64,000 nt of DNA from Escherichia coli (lineage in GTDB: Bacteria; Pseudomonadota; Gammaproteobacteria; Enterobacterales; Enterobacteriaceae), in NCBI RefSeq assembly GCF_009931435.1, contig NZ_CP043414.1. One strand, 5' to 3'. The position numbers and the translations under genes are program-made. Shown here piece by piece: positions 15,527-59,522 of the stretch; the stretch's first letter is position 1, and each line of letters starts with the position of its first letter. The notes below the pieces were generated by a model. The model was not told the DNA's origin. It ran no database searches and saw nothing but the letters and a program-made list of their open reading frames with translations.

Positions 15527-17509
15527 TTAACGGCTCTGCTTTCTCAACAAATAGATAAAATACGGCGCGCCGATAAAGGTCGACAGCAGCCCCGCTGGGA
15601 TCTGGAATGGAAACAGCACCATCCGCCCACACCAGTCAGCGAACACCAGCAACAATCCCCCTACCAGCGCCGAAATCACGATGTGCGGCATCGTCCGTCG
15701 AAAGCCCATCATCCGTGCGATATGCGGTGCCATCAGGCCAACAAAACTCAACGGCCCGATGGTCATTGTCGCGGTCGCCGTCAGGCAAGCCGCCAGCAGC
15801 AGTAGCGCAATTCGCGTCGGCGTCAGCGCCATTCCCACGGCTCGTGCGGTATCACCTCCCAGCGGTAAAATGGTCAGCCAGCGGCGGCACAGCGGGGTAA
15901 TCGCCAGCAAAATCACCATCACAATTCCGGTGCGCCAGACCTGCGCCTCGGTCGCGTTGTAGGTCGAACCGGAAATCCAGGTCAGCACTTGCGCCATTCG
16001 CGGGTCACCACTTGCCTGCAACATCATCAAAAGCATGGTGAACGCAGTACTTAAGGCCATCCCCGCCAGTAACATGCGGTGTGGGGAAAATCCACCGCGC
16101 CCGGCAGCGATCATAATGATCAACAGCGTCACCGCCGCGCCGAGACTGCCCGCGGGTAACAGCCAGCCAAAGGCATTACCCGGCACCAGAAACAGCATCA
16201 ACACCACACCAAACGCCGCGCCTGAACTAATCCCCAGCACTTCGGGGCTTGCCATCGGGTTTCCGGTCAGCCGCTGAATAATACAGCCCGCCACTGCCAG
16301 CATGATGCCCGCAAACAGTGCCGCCATAATTCGCGGCCAGCGCCAGGGCATTAAATCATCGAGCAGCGCCCCGCTCGCCCACGTCCAGCCGTGCGCATCA
16401 CGACCAAACGACAGCGCCACCACCACAGCAATTATCAGCAGCACACCGCCAGCAAGGGCAAACGCCAGCACATGTTGGCGTTCAGTCGCGACACGATCGT
16501 TGGCCTTCATATCCGGCGCACTGATGCTGCGTAAACGCGGCAGCAGCCACAGTAACAGCGGCGCACCTATCAACGCCGTCACCGAACCGGTAGAAACTTC
16601 CATCCACACGCGAGTCAGCCAGAGGATGATTTGATCGGAAAGCCAGAGGATCAGCGCACCAATCAGTGACGCCAGCAGCAGTCTTGGCAGCAGACGCCGC
16701 GCCCCCAGCATTTTTGCCAGCAGTGGCGCGAACAACCCGATAAAGCCGATAATCCCCACCGCGTTCACCAACAGAGCACTGATGACTATCGCCAGCGACA
16801 GCGCCGCCAGACGCGCGAGCGATAAGGCCAGCCCGAGATTACGCGCCACGCCATCATCAAGCCCCATCAGGGTTAATGGACGAAGTAGCAGTAACGTCAG
16901 CATCACGCCGCCCAGCAGCTGTGGCCATAAACGCTCAACGCCGCCCCAGTCGGTTTGCGTCAGCGTTCCGGTACTCCACAGGAACATGCTTTGCAGCTGG
17001 TCGTGATGGAAGATAACCAGTAGCTGATTAATTGCCCCACAATAAAGGCTCACCACCAGCCCCGCGAGGATCAGTGTTACCGGCGAAAGCCGTTTCCCCC
17101 ACGCGACGCCAAAGACAATTAAGCCAACAACGCAAGCCCCCGCCAATGCAGCAAACTGGCTCGCCATAGCACCAGGGATCGCCCAGAGCGTGGTGACGGT
17201 AATCCCCAGTTGCGCGCCTGTAGCAACGCCCAACGTCGTCGGCTCCGCCAGCGGGTTACGCAGCACTTGCTGAAATAGCACGCCCACCAGCCCCAGACCC
17301 GCGCCCACCAGCAGCGAAATCGCCAGACGCGGCAGCAAGCTGTAGTGAAAAATCATCTGCTCGATGACATCGATATCCGGCGACCAGGTGGCCTGCACCC
17401 ACTGGCTACGCGGCAGCGCCTGCGAGAAGTTCATCCAGGTTAGCATCGCTGCGGCAATCACCAGCAGCGCCAGCAATAACGCCGGGAAAAGCGCAATACG
17501 TTTACTCAC
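15527..17509 (-). CDS. fhuB: ferric hydroxamate ABC transporter permease
   Basis: 660-aa ORF with internally duplicated FecCD-type permease halves; last gene of fhuACDB. Confidence 0.95.
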   Translation of the reverse strand: MSKRIALFPALLLALLVIAAAMLTWMNFSQALPRSQWVQATWSPDIDVIEQMIFHYSLLPRLAISLLVGAGLGLVGVLFQQVLRNPLAEPTTLGVATGAQLGITVTTLWAIPGAMASQFAALAGACVVGLIVFGVAWGKRLSPVTLILAGLVVSLYCGAINQLLVIFHHDQLQSMFLWSTGTLTQTDWGGVERLWPQLLGGVMLTLLLLRPLTLMGLDDGVARNLGLALSLARLAALSLAIVISALLVNAVGIIGFIGLFAPLLAKMLGARRLLPRLLLASLIGALILWLSDQIILWLTRVWMEVSTGSVTALIGAPLLLWLLPRLRSISAPDMKANDRVATERQHVLAFALAGGVLLIIAVVVALSFGRDAHGWTWASGALLDDLMPWRWPRIMAALFAGIMLAVAGCIIQRLTGNPMASPEVLGISSGAAFGVVLMLFLVPGNAFGWLLPAGSLGAAVTLLIIMIAAGRGGFSPHRMLLAGMALSTAFTMLLMMLQASGDPRMAQVLTWISGSTYNATEAQVWRTGIVMVILLAITPLCRRWLTILPLGGDTARAVGMALTPTRIALLLLAACLTATATMTIGPLSFVGLMAPHIARMMGFRRTMPHIVISALVGGLLLVFADWCGRMVLFPFQIPAGLLSTFIGAPYFIYLLRKQSR

Positions 17510-18399
17510 GCTTTACCTCCAATAGCATTATCCAGAATACGCACAAAATGCATTGCCGAGAGCGTCGCACCATAAAACCAGACTGCGGGGACGCGCTGAA
17601 AGCGTCCGGCACGGACAAACGGCATGGCCTGCCACAGCGGGGTTGCCATTAGTGCGTCCATGTCTCTGCTGTTGTCGTGATCAAAACAGAGCACATCAAC
17701 GTCCTTATACGCTGCCAGACGATCGATACTGACGGCAGTACTGCCCCAGAAGTTGGTTTCTCCTTGCCAGGCATTTGGGATGCCGTACTCATCGAGAATT
17801 TCCTGGAACAGGCTGTTCGGGCCGAAGACCAGCATATGGCGCGGATCGATAAGTGTCGTCAGCAATAACGGGCGCGCACCACGCTTCACAAAGCGGGGTT
17901 TCATGCTGCGGATAAAGTCTTCATAGTGCGCTAAATGCGTTTCCGCTGCGCTTTGCAGGTTAAGTAAATCTGCCATTTCCGTCAGTGACTTACGCGCCAT
18001 CGCCAGCGGCTGTTTGCCGTCGCTGAAGTTAAATCCGCGCCCAGGCGCAATGCGTGCCAGCATTTCTGGTGAAGGGCCATACCCTGCCGACCAGACCATA
18101 AACGACGGTTTCATTTCGGTCAGCAGTTCAAGGTTAGGTTCTGTCCGCAAACCAACGTCAATCACTGAATCCGGCAATGGTGGCTCGCTGACCCACAGGC
18201 GATAGTTGATGGTATCCGCCACGCCGTAAGGTACGATGCCGAGCGCCAGCAGTAATTCCACCGGCAACCACTCCAGCGCCACAATACGATTGGGATCAAT
18301 AGCCGCCGCGCGGGCGGTATTCATCTGCCATAACAACGGAGAAAGCGCCATCGCTGTTAACAGTCGACGGCGCGTAATTAGAGGTAAGCTGCTCATCAA
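17506..18399 (-). CDS. fhuD: ferric hydroxamate periplasmic binding protein
   Basis: 297-aa ORF with signal peptide; its stop overlaps the fhuB start (ATGA); exact start (18399 or 18396) uncertain. Confidence 0.93.
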   Translation of the reverse strand: MMSSLPLITRRRLLTAMALSPLLWQMNTARAAAIDPNRIVALEWLPVELLLALGIVPYGVADTINYRLWVSEPPLPDSVIDVGLRTEPNLELLTEMKPSFMVWSAGYGPSPEMLARIAPGRGFNFSDGKQPLAMARKSLTEMADLLNLQSAAETHLAHYEDFIRSMKPRFVKRGARPLLLTTLIDPRHMLVFGPNSLFQEILDEYGIPNAWQGETNFWGSTAVSIDRLAAYKDVDVLCFDHDNSRDMDALMATPLWQAMPFVRAGRFQRVPAVWFYGATLSAMHFVRILDNAIGGKA

Positions 18400-19193
18400 T
18401 AAACAAAACTCACAGGTGCAGCACCCGCCGGATGCGGCAAAATACCCATCGGGATGCCATAAATCATTTCGAGGGTTTCGCCGCGCATAATTTCCGCAGG
18501 CGTTCCCTGAGCAATCATTTCACCGCCGCGCAGGGCGACCAGATAATCACAGTAACGCGCAGCCATATTGATATCGTGCAGCACGGCAATGACCGTCAGG
18601 CCACGCTCCTGACTTAAACGATGCACCAGCGCCAGCACATCAACCTGGTGGGCGATATCCAGCGCCGAGGTCGGTTCGTCGAGCAACAGACAACGGCTAT
18701 CCTGCGCCACCAGCATGGCGATCCACGCCCGTTGACGTTCGCCGCCAGAGAGGCTATCGACCAGCCGATGCGCCAGCGGTTTTAAGCCAACCAGCGAGAT
18801 AGCCTCTTCGACCTTTTCGCGATCTGCCGCGCCAAAGCGCCCCAGCGCGCCATGCCACGGGTAACGACCAATCGCCACCAGTTCACGCACCGTCATCCCT
18901 TCTGCCGGAGGAAGCTGCTGCGGCAAATAAGCCACTTTGCGAGCAAACGCTTTGCTGCTCCAGCTTTCCAGCGGCTGGGCATCAAGAAGAATCTCCCCTT
19001 CTGACGGTGGCTGATGGCGGCCCAACATTTTTAACAGCGTGGATTTACCAGAGCCGTTGTGACCAATCAGACCGGTCACTTTCCCGGCAGGAAAGGTTAA
19101 CGACAGCGGATGCAAAAGCGTGCGCCCGGGCACACGAAAGGAGATATTACGCAGTGCAAAAGTGGTATCGGAATGATTCGTGTATTCCTGCAT
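18396..19193 (-). CDS. fhuC: ferric hydroxamate ABC transporter ATP-binding protein
   Basis: ORF 18396..19235; start placed at MQEYTNHSD (265 aa); Walker A GHNGSGKST and ABC signature LSGGERQR. Confidence 0.93.
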   Translation of the reverse strand: MQEYTNHSDTTFALRNISFRVPGRTLLHPLSLTFPAGKVTGLIGHNGSGKSTLLKMLGRHQPPSEGEILLDAQPLESWSSKAFARKVAYLPQQLPPAEGMTVRELVAIGRYPWHGALGRFGAADREKVEEAISLVGLKPLAHRLVDSLSGGERQRAWIAMLVAQDSRCLLLDEPTSALDIAHQVDVLALVHRLSQERGLTVIAVLHDINMAARYCDYLVALRGGEMIAQGTPAEIMRGETLEMIYGIPMGILPHPAGAAPVSFVY

Positions 19194-19243
19194 AACAGCC
19201 AACTTGTGAAACGGGCACGGAAATCCGTGCCCCAAAAGAGAAA

Positions 19244-21487
19244 TTAGAAACGGAAGGTTGCGGTTGCAACGACCTGACGTTCTGCGCCCCAGAAGCAGCC
19301 ATAGGTATTAAAGCAGCTGGCGACGTATTCACGATCGAACAGGTTGTTGACATGCAGCGCCACGTTGGAGCCAGCCATGCCGACCCGCGCCAGATCATAA
19401 CGCACTAACGCATCCACGACCGTATAACTTCCCACTTTAAAGGAGTTAGCCGGATCACCATAGCTGGAGCCAGTATAACGACCACCAGTACCCAGCGTCA
19501 GGCCAGAAAGCGGACCATCAAAGAAGGTGTAGTCAGCCCACAGCGAAGCCATATGTTTTGGCACCTGCGCAGGCGTATTGCCTTTATAGGTAGTGTCGGT
19601 GGTGTATTCTGCATCGGTGTAAGTATAAGAACCAACTACGTTAACACTCGCCGACAGCGCCGCTTTCGCTTCGATTTCTACGCCACGCGCGCGGATTTCA
19701 CCACCTTCAACCGAGAAGAAGGAACCCTCAGGGTCCGCCATCAGGTTGTTGGTTTTAGTGAGATTATACACAGCACCAGTAACCACAATTGGGCGATCTT
19801 CCGGTACATATTTCACGCCGACCTCATACTGCTTACCTTTAGACGGCGCAAAAATATTACCATCCTTCCCAACTTGTGAAGAAGGTTCAAACGATTCGCT
19901 ATAGCTGAAGTAAGGTGTTACACCATTATCAAACAGGTAGTTAACACCACCACGCCAGGTAAACTGTTTGTCATCACGTTTATCGGTCGTCCCTTCAACG
20001 CGGTTATGAGACTCTTGATCCGCCCAGTCATAACGACCGCCCAGGGTGACCAGCACTTTATCCCACTGCGCCTGATCCTGAACATAAACACCCGTTTGTT
20101 TCTGCTTATTCAGAATGCGGTAAGGGCCGGAGTTTGCCGGATCTTTCGCATTGAAGTCGAAATCGGTATTCACCGGATTGTACAGATCGAGCAGCGGTAC
20201 GGAGTCGTCGTAACCAAACCAGGCGTTGATGTCATTACGCATACGCATAAAGTCGACACCGGTCAGCAGAGTGTGGTCGATATCGCCAGTGGCAAACTTG
20301 CTCTGCAACTGGGTATCAACGGAGAAGTTTTGCAGCTTCTCATCATCAACGACGTATTTACGTGCCAGGTAGTGACCTTTATCGGCTGGCGCTAAAGCGG
20401 CACACTGTTTGCTGTAAGCATTCGCCGGATCGGAGCAGACGCCGTAACCATAAACGCTGTTTTGCGAGGTTTTGTTTTCAGCAAAGCGCAGGTTCTGACG
20501 CACAGTAAAGGTGTCGTTAAATTCGTGATCGAAGCTGTAGCCCACCATCTTCTCATTACGAGAATAGGTGTTGTTCTTCGCCCCTTCGTTAAAATCTGTC
20601 GGCAGACGCTTACCGTTCGGCAGCGGCTCAACGGTTCCCTCTTTCGGCAGCCAGCCGTAATAACCGGTTTCCGGCTCGTTCTGGAAGTAAGAAAGGAAGG
20701 TGAAATTGGTTTTATCATCCGGACGCCAGGTAAACGCTGGCGCAATGGCATAACGCTGCTCTTCCGCGCCCTTTTGCTGGGCATTGGCAGAGCGCGCCAG
20801 TCCGGTCAGACGATAAGAGTAAACGCCGTCATCATCCAGCGCATCGCTAAAGTCGAAACCGGTCTGGAACAGGCTGTCTGTGCCCGCTTTAAATTGGATT
20901 TCTTTCAGCGGTTCGGTGGTTGGGCGCTTGCTGACCATATTTAACAGGCCGCCAGGGCTACTTTTACCGTAAAGAACAGAAACAGGGCCACGCATAATTT
21001 CAGCGCGTTCCAGCATATACGGGTCAATAACTGCATCGTTATAGAAGTTGCCTTGCAACTTCAGACCATTCAGATAGTTATTCTGGCTTTGGCCTTCTGC
21101 TGCAAAACCACGAATAATCAAATGATCATAAGTGTTTGATGCACCACGCGTACCGACCGAAACGCCTGGCGTATAGCTAAGCGCTTCTTTTACTGACTTA
21201 GGCTGATGCAGCGCCATTTCTTCGGCAGTGACAACAGAAATTGACTGCGGCACTTTTTGAATCGGTGTATCGGTTTTGGTGCCGGTAGCGGACTGTCGCG
21301 CCGCAATAGTTGCAGCTGGCCCCCATGCGCTTTCTTGCGGCGCTGGTGCAGCGGTAACGGTGATAGTGTCTTCTTTCGGTTCAACCGCTGCCTGTGCATA
21401 AACAGACATGCCGCTAACCGCTGTGGCTACTACAACTGCGATTTTACGCAGTGAGTGTTTTGGCTGAGCAGTTTTGGAACGCGCCAT
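19244..21487 (-). CDS. fhuA: TonB-dependent ferrichrome outer-membrane transporter (phage T1/T5/phi80 and colicin M receptor)
   Basis: 747-aa ORF with signal peptide, TonB box and C-terminal aromatic residue. Confidence 0.95.
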   Translation of the reverse strand: MARSKTAQPKHSLRKIAVVVATAVSGMSVYAQAAVEPKEDTITVTAAPAPQESAWGPAATIAARQSATGTKTDTPIQKVPQSISVVTAEEMALHQPKSVKEALSYTPGVSVGTRGASNTYDHLIIRGFAAEGQSQNNYLNGLKLQGNFYNDAVIDPYMLERAEIMRGPVSVLYGKSSPGGLLNMVSKRPTTEPLKEIQFKAGTDSLFQTGFDFSDALDDDGVYSYRLTGLARSANAQQKGAEEQRYAIAPAFTWRPDDKTNFTFLSYFQNEPETGYYGWLPKEGTVEPLPNGKRLPTDFNEGAKNNTYSRNEKMVGYSFDHEFNDTFTVRQNLRFAENKTSQNSVYGYGVCSDPANAYSKQCAALAPADKGHYLARKYVVDDEKLQNFSVDTQLQSKFATGDIDHTLLTGVDFMRMRNDINAWFGYDDSVPLLDLYNPVNTDFDFNAKDPANSGPYRILNKQKQTGVYVQDQAQWDKVLVTLGGRYDWADQESHNRVEGTTDKRDDKQFTWRGGVNYLFDNGVTPYFSYSESFEPSSQVGKDGNIFAPSKGKQYEVGVKYVPEDRPIVVTGAVYNLTKTNNLMADPEGSFFSVEGGEIRARGVEIEAKAALSASVNVVGSYTYTDAEYTTDTTYKGNTPAQVPKHMASLWADYTFFDGPLSGLTLGTGGRYTGSSYGDPANSFKVGSYTVVDALVRYDLARVGMAGSNVALHVNNLFDREYVASCFNTYGCFWGAERQVVATATFRF

Positions 21488-21508
21488 TGGTATATCTCTG
21501 ATGTAAAG

Positions 21509-21558
21509 TGAATGATAACGTAAACGAGAATGATTATTATAAAGATGAGATAATATTC
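21509..21558 (-). promoter_or_regulatory. Fur box(es) in the fhuA promoter
   Basis: GAGAATGATTATTATAAAG and GATGAGATAATATTC resemble the Fur consensus GATAATGATAATCATTATC, 25-70 bp upstream of the fhuA start. Confidence 0.6.
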
Positions 21559-21705
21559 GAAACGCTGGCGGGTTCGCAAGCGGTACGCAATCTGAGCATT
21601 CCTGAGGGGTTAATAAACAATCAGATGAAAAGAAAGGGTTAATACTTTGGGTAGGATGTTATTTTACCGGATGGCGACTCGCCATCCGGTATGTCAGCTT
21701 AGACG

Positions 21706-24240
21706 TTAATTACTACCAAACATATCCTTGATCCAACCTGCTACGCCGTCACTGTCTTTCTGCTCTTGCTGAGCAGGTTGCTGTTGCGGCTGTTGCTGCG
21801 GCTGAGAAGACTGATCAAACGGATTGCCTGACGGTTGCTGCTGAATCTCACTCTGCTGGCACAGCGATTGCGGATCGCTGGTCCAGACCGGCAAGACACG
21901 CATGCCACCGCTGCAAACAAAGTTGCCGTCGTAGTCCACGCCCATATCTGCAATATCTTCTGGTGGAACAAGATTCAGCGGTGTTGGCGTCTGGTTAGCC
22001 AGATAACGCTGATAAATCGACATTGCCCCGCTGGCTCCATACAGTTTGGTCGGCTGGTTGTTATCACGGCCTACCCAGGTGATGGTCACCGTGCTGCCGT
22101 CAATGCCCGCAAACCAGGTATCTACGTTGTTGTTGGTAGTACCCGTTTTCCCTGCCAGATGCAGATTTGGATATTTCGCCCCAAGCTGACGTCCCGTACC
22201 GCGTTGTACTACCTGCTGCATGGTCCATAGTGTCAGATACGCCGCCTGAGCCGGAACAGCGCGTTCCGCCTGCGGGAAGCTCTGATACAGTACCTTGCCA
22301 TCTTCCGCGATTACCGAACGCAGCGCAGAAAGCGGTGCTCGGTTACCACCACTAGCGATGGTCTGGAACGCCTGCGCCACTTCAATTGGCGTTAAGTTCA
22401 ACGCCCCCAGCAGCATTGCCGGAACCGGATGCAGCTGATCTTTCGGTACGCCCAGTTTAATCCAGGTATCCGTAACCGCAGGCAGACCCAGCGCCATCCC
22501 CAGATTCACCGTCGGCACGTTCATCGAACGTGTCAACGCATCCACCAGCATCACTCTGCCACTTTCGCTATAACGACGGTCATCGTTCTGCGGTGACCAG
22601 ACCTGGCCATTCGGCTGACGCAGCGCGATTGGCGCATCGGCAATCCACGTGTTCAGGCGATAGATTTTCGGCTGGCTTAAGGCCGTCAGATAAGTCGCTG
22701 GTTTTGCAAGAGAACCAATCGAACGACGCGCCTGCATCGCACGGTTGTAACCCGCAAACTGCGGCTCAGAACCACCGACCATCGCACGAACTTCACCACT
22801 AAAGCGGTCGACGACCACAATCGCGGTTTCAAGATCGCTCAACTTACGCTGTTTCTTCAGTGCCGGAATGCCTTCCACGGCGGCTTTTTCTGCCGCGTCC
22901 TGGGCCACCGAGTCAAAGGTTGTGAAGATCTTCACGCCGGAGAGATCTTTTACCTTATCGCCCAGTTTTGCCTGCAACTCCTGACGCACCAGCTGCATAA
23001 AGGCTGGCTGTGGAGAGATTACCCCACCGCGCGGCTGAACGCCCAGCGGACGTGCACTCAACATGTCATAGAGCTCTTGATCAATAATCTGCTGTTGTTG
23101 CAGCAGACGCAGTACCAGATTACGTCGCTCCAGCGCCAGTTTCGGGTTACGCCACGGGTTATAGATCGACGCCCCTTTCACCATACCAACCAACAGCGCC
23201 TGCTGGTCGAGACTCAGCTCTTCTACCGGGCGACCAAAGTAGTACAGGCTCGCCAGCGGGAAACCGCGGATTTCGTTGTCGCCGCTCTGACCGAGATACA
23301 CCTCGTTCATATACAGCTCAAGAATGCGGTCTTTGCTGTAACGCGCATCCATAATCAGCGCCATGTAGGCTTCGTTAGCTTTACGCCAGTAAGAACGTTC
23401 GCTGGAGAGGAACAGGTTTTTCACCAACTGTTGCGTCAGCGTACTCGCTCCCTGCACCGTGCGTCCGGCGGTCAGGTTTGCCAGCACCGCTCGTCCGATG
23501 GAGTAGAGACTGATCCCATCATGCTCGTAGAAATGACGGTCTTCAGTCGCCAACAACGTATCCACCAGCAAATCCGGGAACCCACTGCGCGGCACAAACA
23601 GACGCTGCTCGCCGTTTGGTGAGGAGATCATGGTGATCAGGCGCGGATCAAGACGGAAGAAACCGAACTGACGGTTGTTCTCCATATTGACGATGGTCGC
23701 CAGATGATCGCCATCAAAGGTCAGACGTGCACGCACCTGCCCTTCTTTACTGTCCGGGAAATCAAACGGACGGCGGATCATTTCAATGCTGTTGGCCTGC
23801 ACGGTAAATTCGCCAGGACGGGTCATTTTCGACACCTGACGATACTGGGTCGCCTCCAGCAGTTTCACCATCTCGTTTTTGCTGATGGTCATGTCTGGCT
23901 CAAGGTTGACCATTCGGCCATAAACAGCCGCAGGCAATTGCCAGACTTTGCCATCAATACGGCTACGAATTTTTTGATCGAGATAAACGCCGTAAATGGC
24001 GATCAGCACGGCAAAAACGATAGCAAGTTTTAGCAGTAGCCATAGCCAGCCGCGTTTGCCACGAGGCTTACGCCCTTTGCCTTTGCCCTTACCTTTGCGC
24101 GGCATCGGTTCTTCATCCTCATAGTCATCATAATCGTCGTAATCATCGTCATCTTCATAACGACGACGGCTTACCTTTTGTTTGACCGGACGCGTCGGTT
24201 TCCCTTTGCGTCCAATTGGCTCGCGGTCATTCCCGGCCAT
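21706..24240 (-). CDS. mrcB: penicillin-binding protein 1B (glycosyltransferase/transpeptidase)
   Basis: ORF 21706..24255; start placed at MAGNDREP (844 aa); acidic then Lys/Gly-rich N-terminus, TM helix, TG and TP domains. Confidence 0.95.
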
Positions 24241-24333
24241 GCTTTTTCTCCGCAATATTCAGGCGCAAAAGCCCGATTTTCTGTTCTTCTGTAACAAGAC
24301 AGAAGAAGATATCTCTCAAATTTACTTTGGTCT

Positions 24334-31612: not shown

Positions 31613-32115
31613 ACCACATTTCTGGAAAAGCGTATTGGGTAATGCAATGTTGTATAATATTATTTTATAGTTTCAATGAATTAATTCTCTCTCCCCCATC
31701 ATAAAAATCACAAAAAAACAGCATTAAACATATAATTACGGCAAATATATTTTCATTACCTATATTAACTTTTCTCTTTATAAGAGGTTTTTAATGATAA
31801 TGAACCAGTTTATTCTGGGTACTATGCCTCACTCCCGGTATTAGCACTGGATAGCGCTTAACTGGATTCTGTCAGGCTGGGACGGGGCAACAAGAGCATA
31901 CAACGACCAGTCCTTAACGCGTGATTATTAATTTCTACAGCGTATCATCATATTATTTAAATCTGCCCAACCTCACCAAATACATTCATAAAATGCATAA
32001 TGATAATAAATCATAAAATACATTCACCGAAGATATTTCTCTTTAAAGAGCGTGACATTTATAATAAGTATTGGTGAGAAAAATCACCCCCATTAATTTT
32101 TATAAGGATATTCCC

Positions 32116-32685
32116 ATGTTAAAAAAAAGTGCTATTGCTGCGGCATTAGTGATGTTCACCACTTCTGCTTTCGCGCTGGATGGCGGTCAATTAGATTTCG
32201 CGGGTTTGGTGAGTGACAACACTTGCGTCTTGCACGTCAACGGTGGCGCCCAGGACGGTCAGATTACCCTGCAAACCGCCACAACCACTGAAGTTAATCA
32301 GGCCGGTGTTGTCCAACTTGCCAGCCCTGGCGCAAAACCGGAAGCCTTCTCTATTACGATCGATTGCTCGGACGATCCACAGGGCGCCTCTGCCAATCTG
32401 AGCATGGGTTCCGTGTTCTTCAGCAACAGTCAGGGCACTCTGAACAACGATCTCTCCATTAGCCAGGCGGCTACCGGGGTCGCGATTGCCATTCACTACC
32501 TTACCGATGCCACTACCTACGAACAGATGAGAGTGAACGACAGCACTGATGTTAAAAACCTGCTGTTTACCAACGGCAAAGCGGTTTACAACTTTAAAGC
32601 GTCATATGTAAAACAGGCAGCAACAGTTAACGCAACGGCAGGTTATGTCAAAACCAACGCCGCTTATACAGTGACTTACCAGTAA
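32116..32685 (+). CDS. yadN: fimbrial major subunit, YadN family
   Basis: ORF 32071..32685; start placed at MLKKSAIAAALVMFTTSAFA (signal peptide); C-terminal ...YTVTYQ donor-strand motif; first gene of the operon next to folK; appears to be a divergent allele. Confidence 0.8.
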   Translation: MLKKSAIAAALVMFTTSAFALDGGQLDFAGLVSDNTCVLHVNGGAQDGQITLQTATTTEVNQAGVVQLASPGAKPEAFSITIDCSDDPQGASANLSMGSVFFSNSQGTLNNDLSISQAATGVAIAIHYLTDATTYEQMRVNDSTDVKNLLFTNGKAVYNFKASYVKQAATVNATAGYVKTNAAYTVTYQ

Positions 32686-57776: not shown

Positions 57777-59522
57777 ATGAAAATGACTTTGCCGTTTAAA
57801 CCCCATGTGCTGGCGCTAATTTGCAGTGCCGGGCTTTGTGCCGCCTCTGCCGGGCTATATATAAAAAGCCGCACAGTGGAAGCGCCTGTGGAAGCGCAAT
57901 CGACACAACTGGCTGCGCCTGACATCACCGCAGTTACGCTTCCTGCAACGGTTTCCGCACCGCCCGTAACGCCCGCCGTCGTTAAAACCGCATTCAGCAC
58001 TGCGCAAATAGATCAATGGGTTGCACCTGTCGCGCTGTACCCCGACTCTCTGCTTTCACAAGTGTTAATGGCATCAACCTATCCGACAAACGTTGCGCAA
58101 GCAGTGCAATGGTCGCACGATAATCCACTTAAACAAGGCGATGCTGCTATTCAGGCGGTATCTGACCAGCCGTGGGACGCCAGCGTCAAATCGCTGGTGG
58201 CTTTTCCGCAATTGATGGCGTTAATGGGCGAAAACCCGCAGTGGGTGCAAAATCTTGGCGACGCATTTCTGGCGCAACCACAGGACGTAATGGACTCGGT
58301 ACAGCGGTTGCGGCAACTGGCGCAACAAACCGGCTCGCTGAAGTCATCAACCGAACAGAAAGTTATTACCACAACGAAGAAAGCTATACCGGTAAAACAG
58401 ACAGTCACGGCTCCCGTCATACCATCCAATACCGTTACAACTGCCAACCCTGTCATTACAGAGCCTGCAACAACCGTCATTTCCATTGAGCCCGCCAATC
58501 CTGATGTGGTCTATATTCCCAACTACAACCCAACCGTGGTTTACGGGAACTGGGCCAATACTGCGTATCCGCCGGTTTATCTGCCACCACCAGCCGGAGA
58601 ACCGTTTGTTGACAGCTTTGTGCGCGGATTCGGCTATAGCATGGGCGTTGCTACCACGTACGCACTATTCAGCAGCATCGACTGGGACGATGACCATCAT
58701 CATGACGATGATGATTATCACCACCACGATGGCGGTCATCGTGACGGTAATGGCTGGCAACACAACGGCGACAACATCAATATCGACGTCAACAATTTCA
58801 ACCGTATCACCGGTGAGCATCTTACTGATAAGAACATGGCATGGCGGCACAATCCAAACTACCGTAATGGTGTGCCCTATCATGATCAGGATATGGCAAA
58901 GCGGTTTCACCAAACCGATGTCAACGGCGGCATGAGCGCCACGCAGTTACCTGCTCCAACACGCGACAGCCAGCGTCAGGCGGCAGCAAGTCAGTTTCAG
59001 CAACGAACACACGCCACACCCGTCATTACGCGAGATACACAACGTCAGGCGGCGGCACAGCGATTTAATGAAGCGGAACACTATGGGAGCTATGACGACT
59101 TCCGCGAGTTCAGCTGTCGCCAACCACTGACCCAGCAACAAAAGGACGCCGCTCGTCAGCGTTATCAGTCGGCCTCTCCTGAGCAGCGCCAGGCAGTCCG
59201 CGAGAGAATGCAGACTAACCCGCAGAACCAGCAGAGAAGAGAAGCGGCACGTGAGCGTATTCAGTCAGCCTCGCCTGAGCAGCGCCAGGCGGTTCGCGAG
59301 AAAATGCAGACTAACCCGCAGAACCAGCAGCGAAGAGAGGCAGCGCGTGAGCGTATACAATCAGCATCACCTGAACAACGTCAGGTTTTTCGGGAGAAAG
59401 TTCAGGAGAGCCGCCCACAACGTCTAAACGACAGTAACCGTACTGCCCGATTGAATAACGAGCAACGGTCAGCAGTACGCGAACGTCTCTCTGAGCACGG
59501 AGCAAGGCGACTGGAAAGGTAA
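57777..59522 (+). CDS. yacH: DUF3300-family secreted protein YacH
   Basis: 581-aa ORF with signal peptide, Asp/His-rich segment and C-terminal tandem repeats; divergent from acnB. Confidence 0.8.
   Translation: MKMTLPFKPHVLALICSAGLCAASAGLYIKSRTVEAPVEAQSTQLAAPDITAVTLPATVSAPPVTPAVVKTAFSTAQIDQWVAPVALYPDSLLSQVLMASTYPTNVAQAVQWSHDNPLKQGDAAIQAVSDQPWDASVKSLVAFPQLMALMGENPQWVQNLGDAFLAQPQDVMDSVQRLRQLAQQTGSLKSSTEQKVITTTKKAIPVKQTVTAPVIPSNTVTTANPVITEPATTVISIEPANPDVVYIPNYNPTVVYGNWANTAYPPVYLPPPAGEPFVDSFVRGFGYSMGVATTYALFSSIDWDDDHHHDDDDYHHHDGGHRDGNGWQHNGDNINIDVNNFNRITGEHLTDKNMAWRHNPNYRNGVPYHDQDMAKRFHQTDVNGGMSATQLPAPTRDSQRQAAASQFQQRTHATPVITRDTQRQAAAQRFNEAEHYGSYDDFREFSCRQPLTQQQKDAARQRYQSASPEQRQAVRERMQTNPQNQQRREAARERIQSASPEQRQAVREKMQTNPQNQQRREAARERIQSASPEQRQVFREKVQESRPQRLNDSNRTARLNNEQRSAVRERLSEHGARRLER
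59154..59410 (+). repeat. ~96-bp in-frame tandem repeat (about 2.7 copies) within yacH
   Basis: units start at 59154, 59250 and 59346; encode ...QSASPEQRQAVRE(R/K)MQTNPQNQQRREAARERI... Confidence 0.85.

Follow-up and report, generated by a model that had tools for sequence, protein, structure and literature searches.

Fur Operator of the fhuACDB Promoter

The 19-bp sequence TATAATAATCATTCTCGTT, located at positions 21523-21541 (minus strand) of the analysed Escherichia coli window, a 64-kb stretch of DNA, is almost certainly the Fur operator of the fhuACDB promoter, by which the operon is repressed with iron and from which it is released when iron is scarce. The match itself, the strength of its score, its identity with the K-12 site and its conservation are direct observations. 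The operator is already known and belongs to textbook biology, and there is nothing novel in its presence here. The box is centred at 21532, 45 bp upstream of the fhuA ATG, with ATAATnATTCTC as its core, TATAATAAT as its left half and ATTCTCGTT as its right half. The preliminary description had placed Fur-box-like sequences 25-70 bp upstream of the fhuA start; with the A of the ATG at 21487, the interval 21509-21558 lies 22-71 bp upstream, which agrees with that distance.

The genes under the control of this site are ordered on the minus strand as fhuA, then fhuC, fhuD and fhuB. The first of them, fhuA (19244-21487), encodes the ferrichrome outer-membrane transporter of 747 aa (NCBIfam equivalog NF007465, 1472 bits against a cut-off of 803). 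Next come fhuC (18396-19193, minus strand), the ABC ATPase of 265 aa, for which the ATG start was confirmed (NF007863, 578 bits), fhuD (17506-18396, minus strand), the periplasmic binding protein of 296 aa (NF007864, 552 bits), and fhuB (15527-17509, minus strand), the permease of 660 aa (NF007865, 1413 bits). All four exceed their NCBIfam equivalog cut-offs, so the site controls iron-acquisition genes. The start of fhuD overlaps the stop of fhuC by 1 nt and the coding sequences of fhuD and fhuB overlap by 4 nt; such tight gene spacing supports the co-transcription of fhuACDB. Upstream of fhuA lies mrcB (21706-24255), and the spacer between the two genes has 218 bp (21488-21705).

The 50-nt spacer between fhuA and fhuC (19194-19243, minus strand) contains the hairpin GGGGCACGGAtttCCGTGCCC, followed by GTTTCAC, which may act as an attenuator within the operon or as a stem that stabilises the mRNA. 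Another, strong hairpin, ACCGGATGGCGA-GUC-GCCAUCCGGU, with a stem of 12 bp, is located at 21666-21691 (minus strand), directly past the mrcB stop codon and within the poorly conserved distal spacer (-24.9 kcal/mol, z = -5.65, without a U tract).

Weight-Matrix Scoring and Consensus Counting

The Fur weight matrix was built from 15 experimentally supported K-12 sites, with fhuA left out, and was symmetrised; it holds 20.2 bits of information. The coordinates of the training sites are those of footprinted or gel-shifted sites in Tables 3 and 4 of Chen et al. 2007 (PMC2189734), and the sites were reconstructed by correcting the offsets between NC_000913.2 and NC_000913.3 via the distances to gene starts. 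The matrix includes the 19-mers of yoeA, gpmA, ryhB, sodA, fecI, entC, fhuF, cirA, fepD-entS, exbB, fepA-fes and fecA, to which the best position within each of the fepB, fur and tonB footprints was added. The consensus of the symmetrised matrix is AATGATAATAATTATCATT (also given as AATGATAATnATTATCATT).

Scoring with this type of matrix, the check that the preliminary description had proposed, gives 20.98 bits for the fhuA box, the top score within the 64-kb window, in which the second-best position reaches 17.6 bits. Among 200 dinucleotide shuffles of the window, the mean maximum is 12.3 bits and the highest 19.5 bits, and none of the 200 reaches 20.98 bits. When 5000 shuffles were made of the 218-bp spacer and of its proximal 100 bp, 0.02% reached this score in each case. 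In leave-one-out scoring, the 15 true sites span 7.0-28.0 bits, and the value falls inside this range.

The main site is accompanied by weaker positions in the same register. A weak secondary match is located 6 bp upstream (21529-21547, minus strand; 2.4 bits, centre -51), and a marginal third in-register position is found at 21517-21535 (minus strand; -0.4 bits, centre -39). The local maxima of the matrix score occur at -57, -51, -45, -39 and -33, and this recurrence every 6 bp is expected of a hexamer-phased Fur architecture. The 50-bp interval contains six NATWAT hexamers, compared with 0.22 expected from the window density. The matrix scores are -5.8 bits or lower for all centres in 21542-21558 and between -7 and -25 bits for centres in 21509-21522. 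Thus, of the 50 bp described as Fur-like, the middle part (21523-21541) is upheld and both ends are without matrix support. Similarly, the two overlapping matches exist as consensus matches with a 6-bp offset, but they represent one strong site with weak in-phase neighbours rather than two comparable boxes.

The counting of matches to the classical 19-bp Fur consensus, GATAATGATAATCATTATC, was tried and rejected as a test. The best consensus matches in 21509-21558 are 14/19 at 21526-21544 (minus strand) and 13/19 at both 21520-21538 and 21526-21544 (plus strand), and the 14/19 and 13/19 matches overlap, lying 6 bp apart. A count of at least 14/19 is also found at six other positions of the window, several of them intragenic, with the best one (15/19) at 58707-58725. 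The 7-1-7 form of the consensus is matched at 11/14 or better by ten 15-mers of the window. Mismatch scoring with either the 19-mer or the 7-1-7 form is no better than chance, and the fhuA site is not unique by it. Such counting would not establish the site, and therefore the weight matrix was used. The lesson for the method is that a matrix of proven sites separates the fhuA box from the 64-kb background, which consensus counting cannot do.

Other Fur-like matches were observed in the window. The second-best matrix site, with 17.6 bits, is the near-palindrome ATTCAGAATGATTCTCAAT at 122-140 (centre 131), in the intergenic region between rpsB and map, the gene of methionine aminopeptidase, whose ATG (215) the site precedes by 84 bp. 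K-12 has the same sequence at 189590. A site as strong arises anywhere in about 4% of the window shuffles, and when the text of Chen et al. 2007 (PMC2189734) was searched together with Table 4, which lists strong Fur clusters, neither map nor rpsB was found in it. Two matches of 11.1 and 7.8 bits, 6 bp apart, are found at 31993-32017; the spacer that holds them is AT-rich and separates folK from a gene for a StaA-like fimbrial major subunit (32071-32685), and this pair could be a product of chance in AT-rich DNA. Intragenic matches occur at 62900-62918 (14.0 bits), inside an aceF-like open reading frame (61226-63124), and at 58701-58725, a segment which includes the window-best classical consensus match. 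Both are probably due to chance, since the shuffles average 0.28 sites of at least 14 bits per window.

Correspondence with the K-12 Site and Classical Fur Operators

Chen et al. 2007 (NAR 35:6762; PMC2189734) listed the fhuA site of K-12 with a score of 19.5 bits, in a cluster of three walkers within 31 bp; its coordinate is 167439 and its position -45, and its flag, G, denotes a gel shift. In the same work, the K-12 fhuA oligonucleotide was shifted by 150 nM purified Fur. The matrix used here gives 20.98 bits at K-12 coordinate 167439 as well, and the K-12 site shares the 19-mer, the distance to the ATG and the flanks, with mrcB upstream and fhuCDB downstream. In the alignment to K-12 MG1655, 97% of the bases are identical over 320 bp. 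The stretch between about -115 and the ATG differs solely by C21547 (T in K-12), whereas the distal spacer toward mrcB carries several SNPs. Because of the C21547 substitution, the -51 walker, which has 6.8 bits in K-12, is reduced to 2.4 bits here. The third in-register position, at -39, agrees with the cluster of three walkers reported for K-12 (PMC2189734).

The regulatory data for the gene point in the same direction. Gerken et al. 2020 (PMC7315122) observed that the fhuA transcript is strongly up, i.e., derepressed, in a delta-fur strain, and the Fur-2 iModulon of Gao et al. 2023 (PMC10164565) includes fhuA, fhuC and fhuD. The PfhuA promoter of PMC3621691 was discarded as evidence, as it is that of Vibrio cholerae. 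The iron-repressed expression of fhuACDB, which had been proposed at the outset, is therefore well founded: the site is identical to the gel-shifted K-12 site, fhuA is derepressed in the delta-fur background, and the box is conserved in 57 of 57 orthologues.

The classical Fur operators, such as those of iucA (aerobactin), fepA-fes, entC, cirA, fecA and fhuF, are, like the fhuA box, 19-bp AT-rich palindromes with the consensus AATGATAATnATTATCATT. They also share with it the arrangement in clusters of 6-bp register and the position upstream of an iron-uptake gene; as in these operators, the fhuA box would lie on or beside the -10 element and the start site. Unlike these operators, fhuA has a single strong site with marginal neighbours and with a degenerate left half, TATAATAAT, that also forms the TATAAT hexamer.

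Conservation of the Promoter Region

The orthologous promoters were collected from species-representative genomes, which were searched with a degenerate pattern for the first nine fhuA codons. A coding-sequence pattern was chosen because it avoids a bias toward the operator. The search resulted in 57 matches encoding FhuA-like N-termini, from Escherichia, Salmonella, Citrobacter, Klebsiella, Raoultella, Kluyvera, Kosakonia, Phytobacter, Trabulsiella, Yokenella, Enterobacter, Superficieibacter and others. In each of these 57 enterobacterial promoters of fhuA, a site scoring 16.8-21.2 bits is centred between -43 and -48. The box has the form YATAATAATMATTMTCGTT in the orthologues, with one Escherichia lineage having a slightly different right half, CACTCTCATT.

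The mean identity to the window sequence was calculated for each segment from a MAFFT alignment of the 57 orthologues. It amounts to 26% in the distal spacer, 69% in the distal HypT site (21640-21626), 64% in the region between this site and the -35 hexamer (21625-21580), and 65% from the -35 hexamer through TATTAT to the Fur box (21579-21542). The Fur box (21541-21523) reaches 92%, and the block downstream of it (21522-21509) reaches 99.6%. At the level of individual elements, the TTGC and TATTAT motifs, as well as the right half of the Fur box, are 80-100% conserved, and positions 21549-21543, between TATTAT and the box, are poorly conserved.

Within the species, the 401 bases around the site find a match in 5421 of the 5426 complete E. 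coli genomes, where mrcB and fhuA are the annotated genes, and the promoter-proximal 100 bp are present in one copy each in 5421 of the 5426. The 401-bp segment 21400-21800 as a whole has at least 99% identity in only 14 of the 5421 genomes, most of them showing 95-99%. The differences within this segment cluster in the distal part of the mrcB-fhuA spacer, and for the proximal 100 bp the number of genomes with an identity of 99% or more is 3868.

Candidate Promoters and Proposed Mechanism of Repression

Two candidate promoters are reported for fhuA, because no experimentally mapped transcription start was found in the literature searched and the start given in the HypT paper (PMC6397515) is computational. 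The first candidate has the -10 hexamer TATAAT at 21536-21541 (minus strand), inside the Fur box, which implies a start at 21529. This start follows from the numbering of the HypT sites on the nearly identical Salmonella promoter (PMC6397515), which traces to the computational promoter study of Huerta & Collado-Vides 2003. The second candidate is a sigma-70 promoter with TTGCGA, an 18-bp spacer and TATTAT at 21550-21579 (minus strand), found in a consensus scan with 9 of 12 matches and with a predicted start at about 21543.

With the start at 21529, the Fur box would extend from -12 to +7; transcription from TTGCGA/TATTAT would instead place it at approximately +3 to +21. The box overlaps TATAAT, and no more than 3 bp separate it from the start predicted upstream of it for the conserved TTGCGA-18-TATTAT promoter, this start too being a computational assignment. 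As the box would overlap the core promoter, Fe2+-Fur should block RNA polymerase. Steric occlusion is the most likely mechanism of repression in either geometry and is the standard model in the cited literature; as the transcription start is known from computational assignment, we infer the repression geometry.

According to the proposed course of events, in the presence of plentiful iron, Fe2+-Fur dimers would bind the 19-bp box at -45, and weaker Fur binding would probably spread onto the in-phase hexamers on both sides. The bound Fur would then sit on the DNA that RNA polymerase must contact, leading to the repression of fhuA-fhuC-fhuD-fhuB transcription. When iron becomes scarce, Fur would be released and the operon expressed. 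The sequence AATCATTCTC is expected to be needed for Fur repression.

Putative HypT Site and the Downstream End of the Interval

The downstream end of the interval, which scores negatively on the Fur matrix, resembles the operator of another regulator. Jo et al. 2019 (PNAS 116:3740; PMC6397515) demonstrated HypT binding to, and HOCl-dependent repression of, the fhuA promoter of Salmonella Typhimurium. The sequence TTACGTTATCATTCA at 21509-21523 (minus strand) matches the DNase I footprint of the proximal Salmonella site in 15 of 15 positions, and AACCCTTTCTTTTCA at 21626-21640 (minus strand) matches the distal site in 14 of 15 (PMC6397515). The starts of the two sites are 117 bp apart, as in Salmonella (PMC6397515). 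Thus, the operator pair of Salmonella Typhimurium is retained here in sequence, with an identical proximal copy and the same spacing, and would be a putative target of HypT in this strain. The proximal copy abuts the Fur box, position 21523 being common to both.

It is an even question whether 21523-21509 would act mainly as an operator of HypT, a hypochlorite-responsive LysR-type regulator, rather than as a second Fur box. Together with the distal site at 21640-21626, such an operator would bend the promoter into a loop and, under HOCl stress, repress fhu, adding to the control by Fur and not replacing it. This possibility is favoured by the exact proximal match, the near-exact distal match and the common spacing, by the conservation of 21522-21509, which is above that of the Fur box, and by the strongly negative Fur scores centred there. 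On the other hand, the binding evidence comes from Salmonella protein and DNA, and the GTTATC of this segment is an in-phase hexamer of the Fur type. Moreover, the orthologues with ATTATCGTT in the box gain a walker of 10.5 bits 6 bp downstream of the main site, at -39 to -41; these are Kosakonia, Phytobacter, Yokenella, Trabulsiella odontotermitis and one unclassified Enterobacteriaceae MAG. The phasing of GTTATC and the walker of these orthologues make extended Fur binding over 21522-21509 also plausible.

The block TTACGTTATCATTCAC (21522-21509), which adjoins the Fur box downstream, is thus nearly invariant in the 57 orthologues and yet negative on the Fur matrix. It is doubtful that this block of 14-16 bp has a role other than in Fur control and as the HypT site reported in Salmonella. 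Such a function may be an obligatory second-dimer Fur contact which is missed by the 19-bp model, or a 5'-leader RNA element of the fhuA mRNA. An Rfam scan of 21300-21900 with E<=1 found no RNA family, and therefore no known leader element.

Upstream End of the Interval and the AT-Rich Promoter

The upstream third of the interval, GAATATTATCTCAT (21545-21558), would give the promoter two boxes if it were a separate Fur site, which is improbable. The segment is AT-rich, with NATWAT hexamers at 21555 (minus strand) and 21549 (plus strand), and its TATTAT is conserved; however, no matrix score centred in 21542-21558 rises above -5.8 bits, the stretch 21549-21543 leading up to the Fur box is poorly conserved, and the conserved TATTAT lies 18 bp from the conserved TTGC, in the geometry of a -35/-10 pair. 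The -10-like TATTAT (21555-21550) is more readily explained as part of the promoter than as a Fur box.

It is scarcely credible that the Fur-like matches arise from the AT-richness of a sigma-70 promoter and have no operator function: a perfect TATAAT does lie within the Fur box, TATTAT is also present in 21509-21558, and equal consensus-mismatch counts occur elsewhere in the window, intragenic positions included, but the matrix score is matched by very few of the composition-keeping local shuffles (0.02%), the right half ATTCTCGTT is no -10 element and is well conserved in the 57 orthologues, the identical K-12 sequence is gel-shifted by Fur (PMC2189734), and fhuA is derepressed in delta-fur (PMC7315122).

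Biological Significance

The Fur operator at 21523-21541 indicates that iron and Fur repress fhuACDB in this strain, just as they do in every E. coli, and the value of its identification lies in the correct annotation of the locus. Ferrichrome, albomycin, colicin M, microcin J25 and the phages T1, T5 and phi80 all use FhuA as their receptor. Therefore, the iron status modulates the sensitivity of the cell to FhuA-dependent agents such as albomycin, colicin M and the phages, which is an established relationship.
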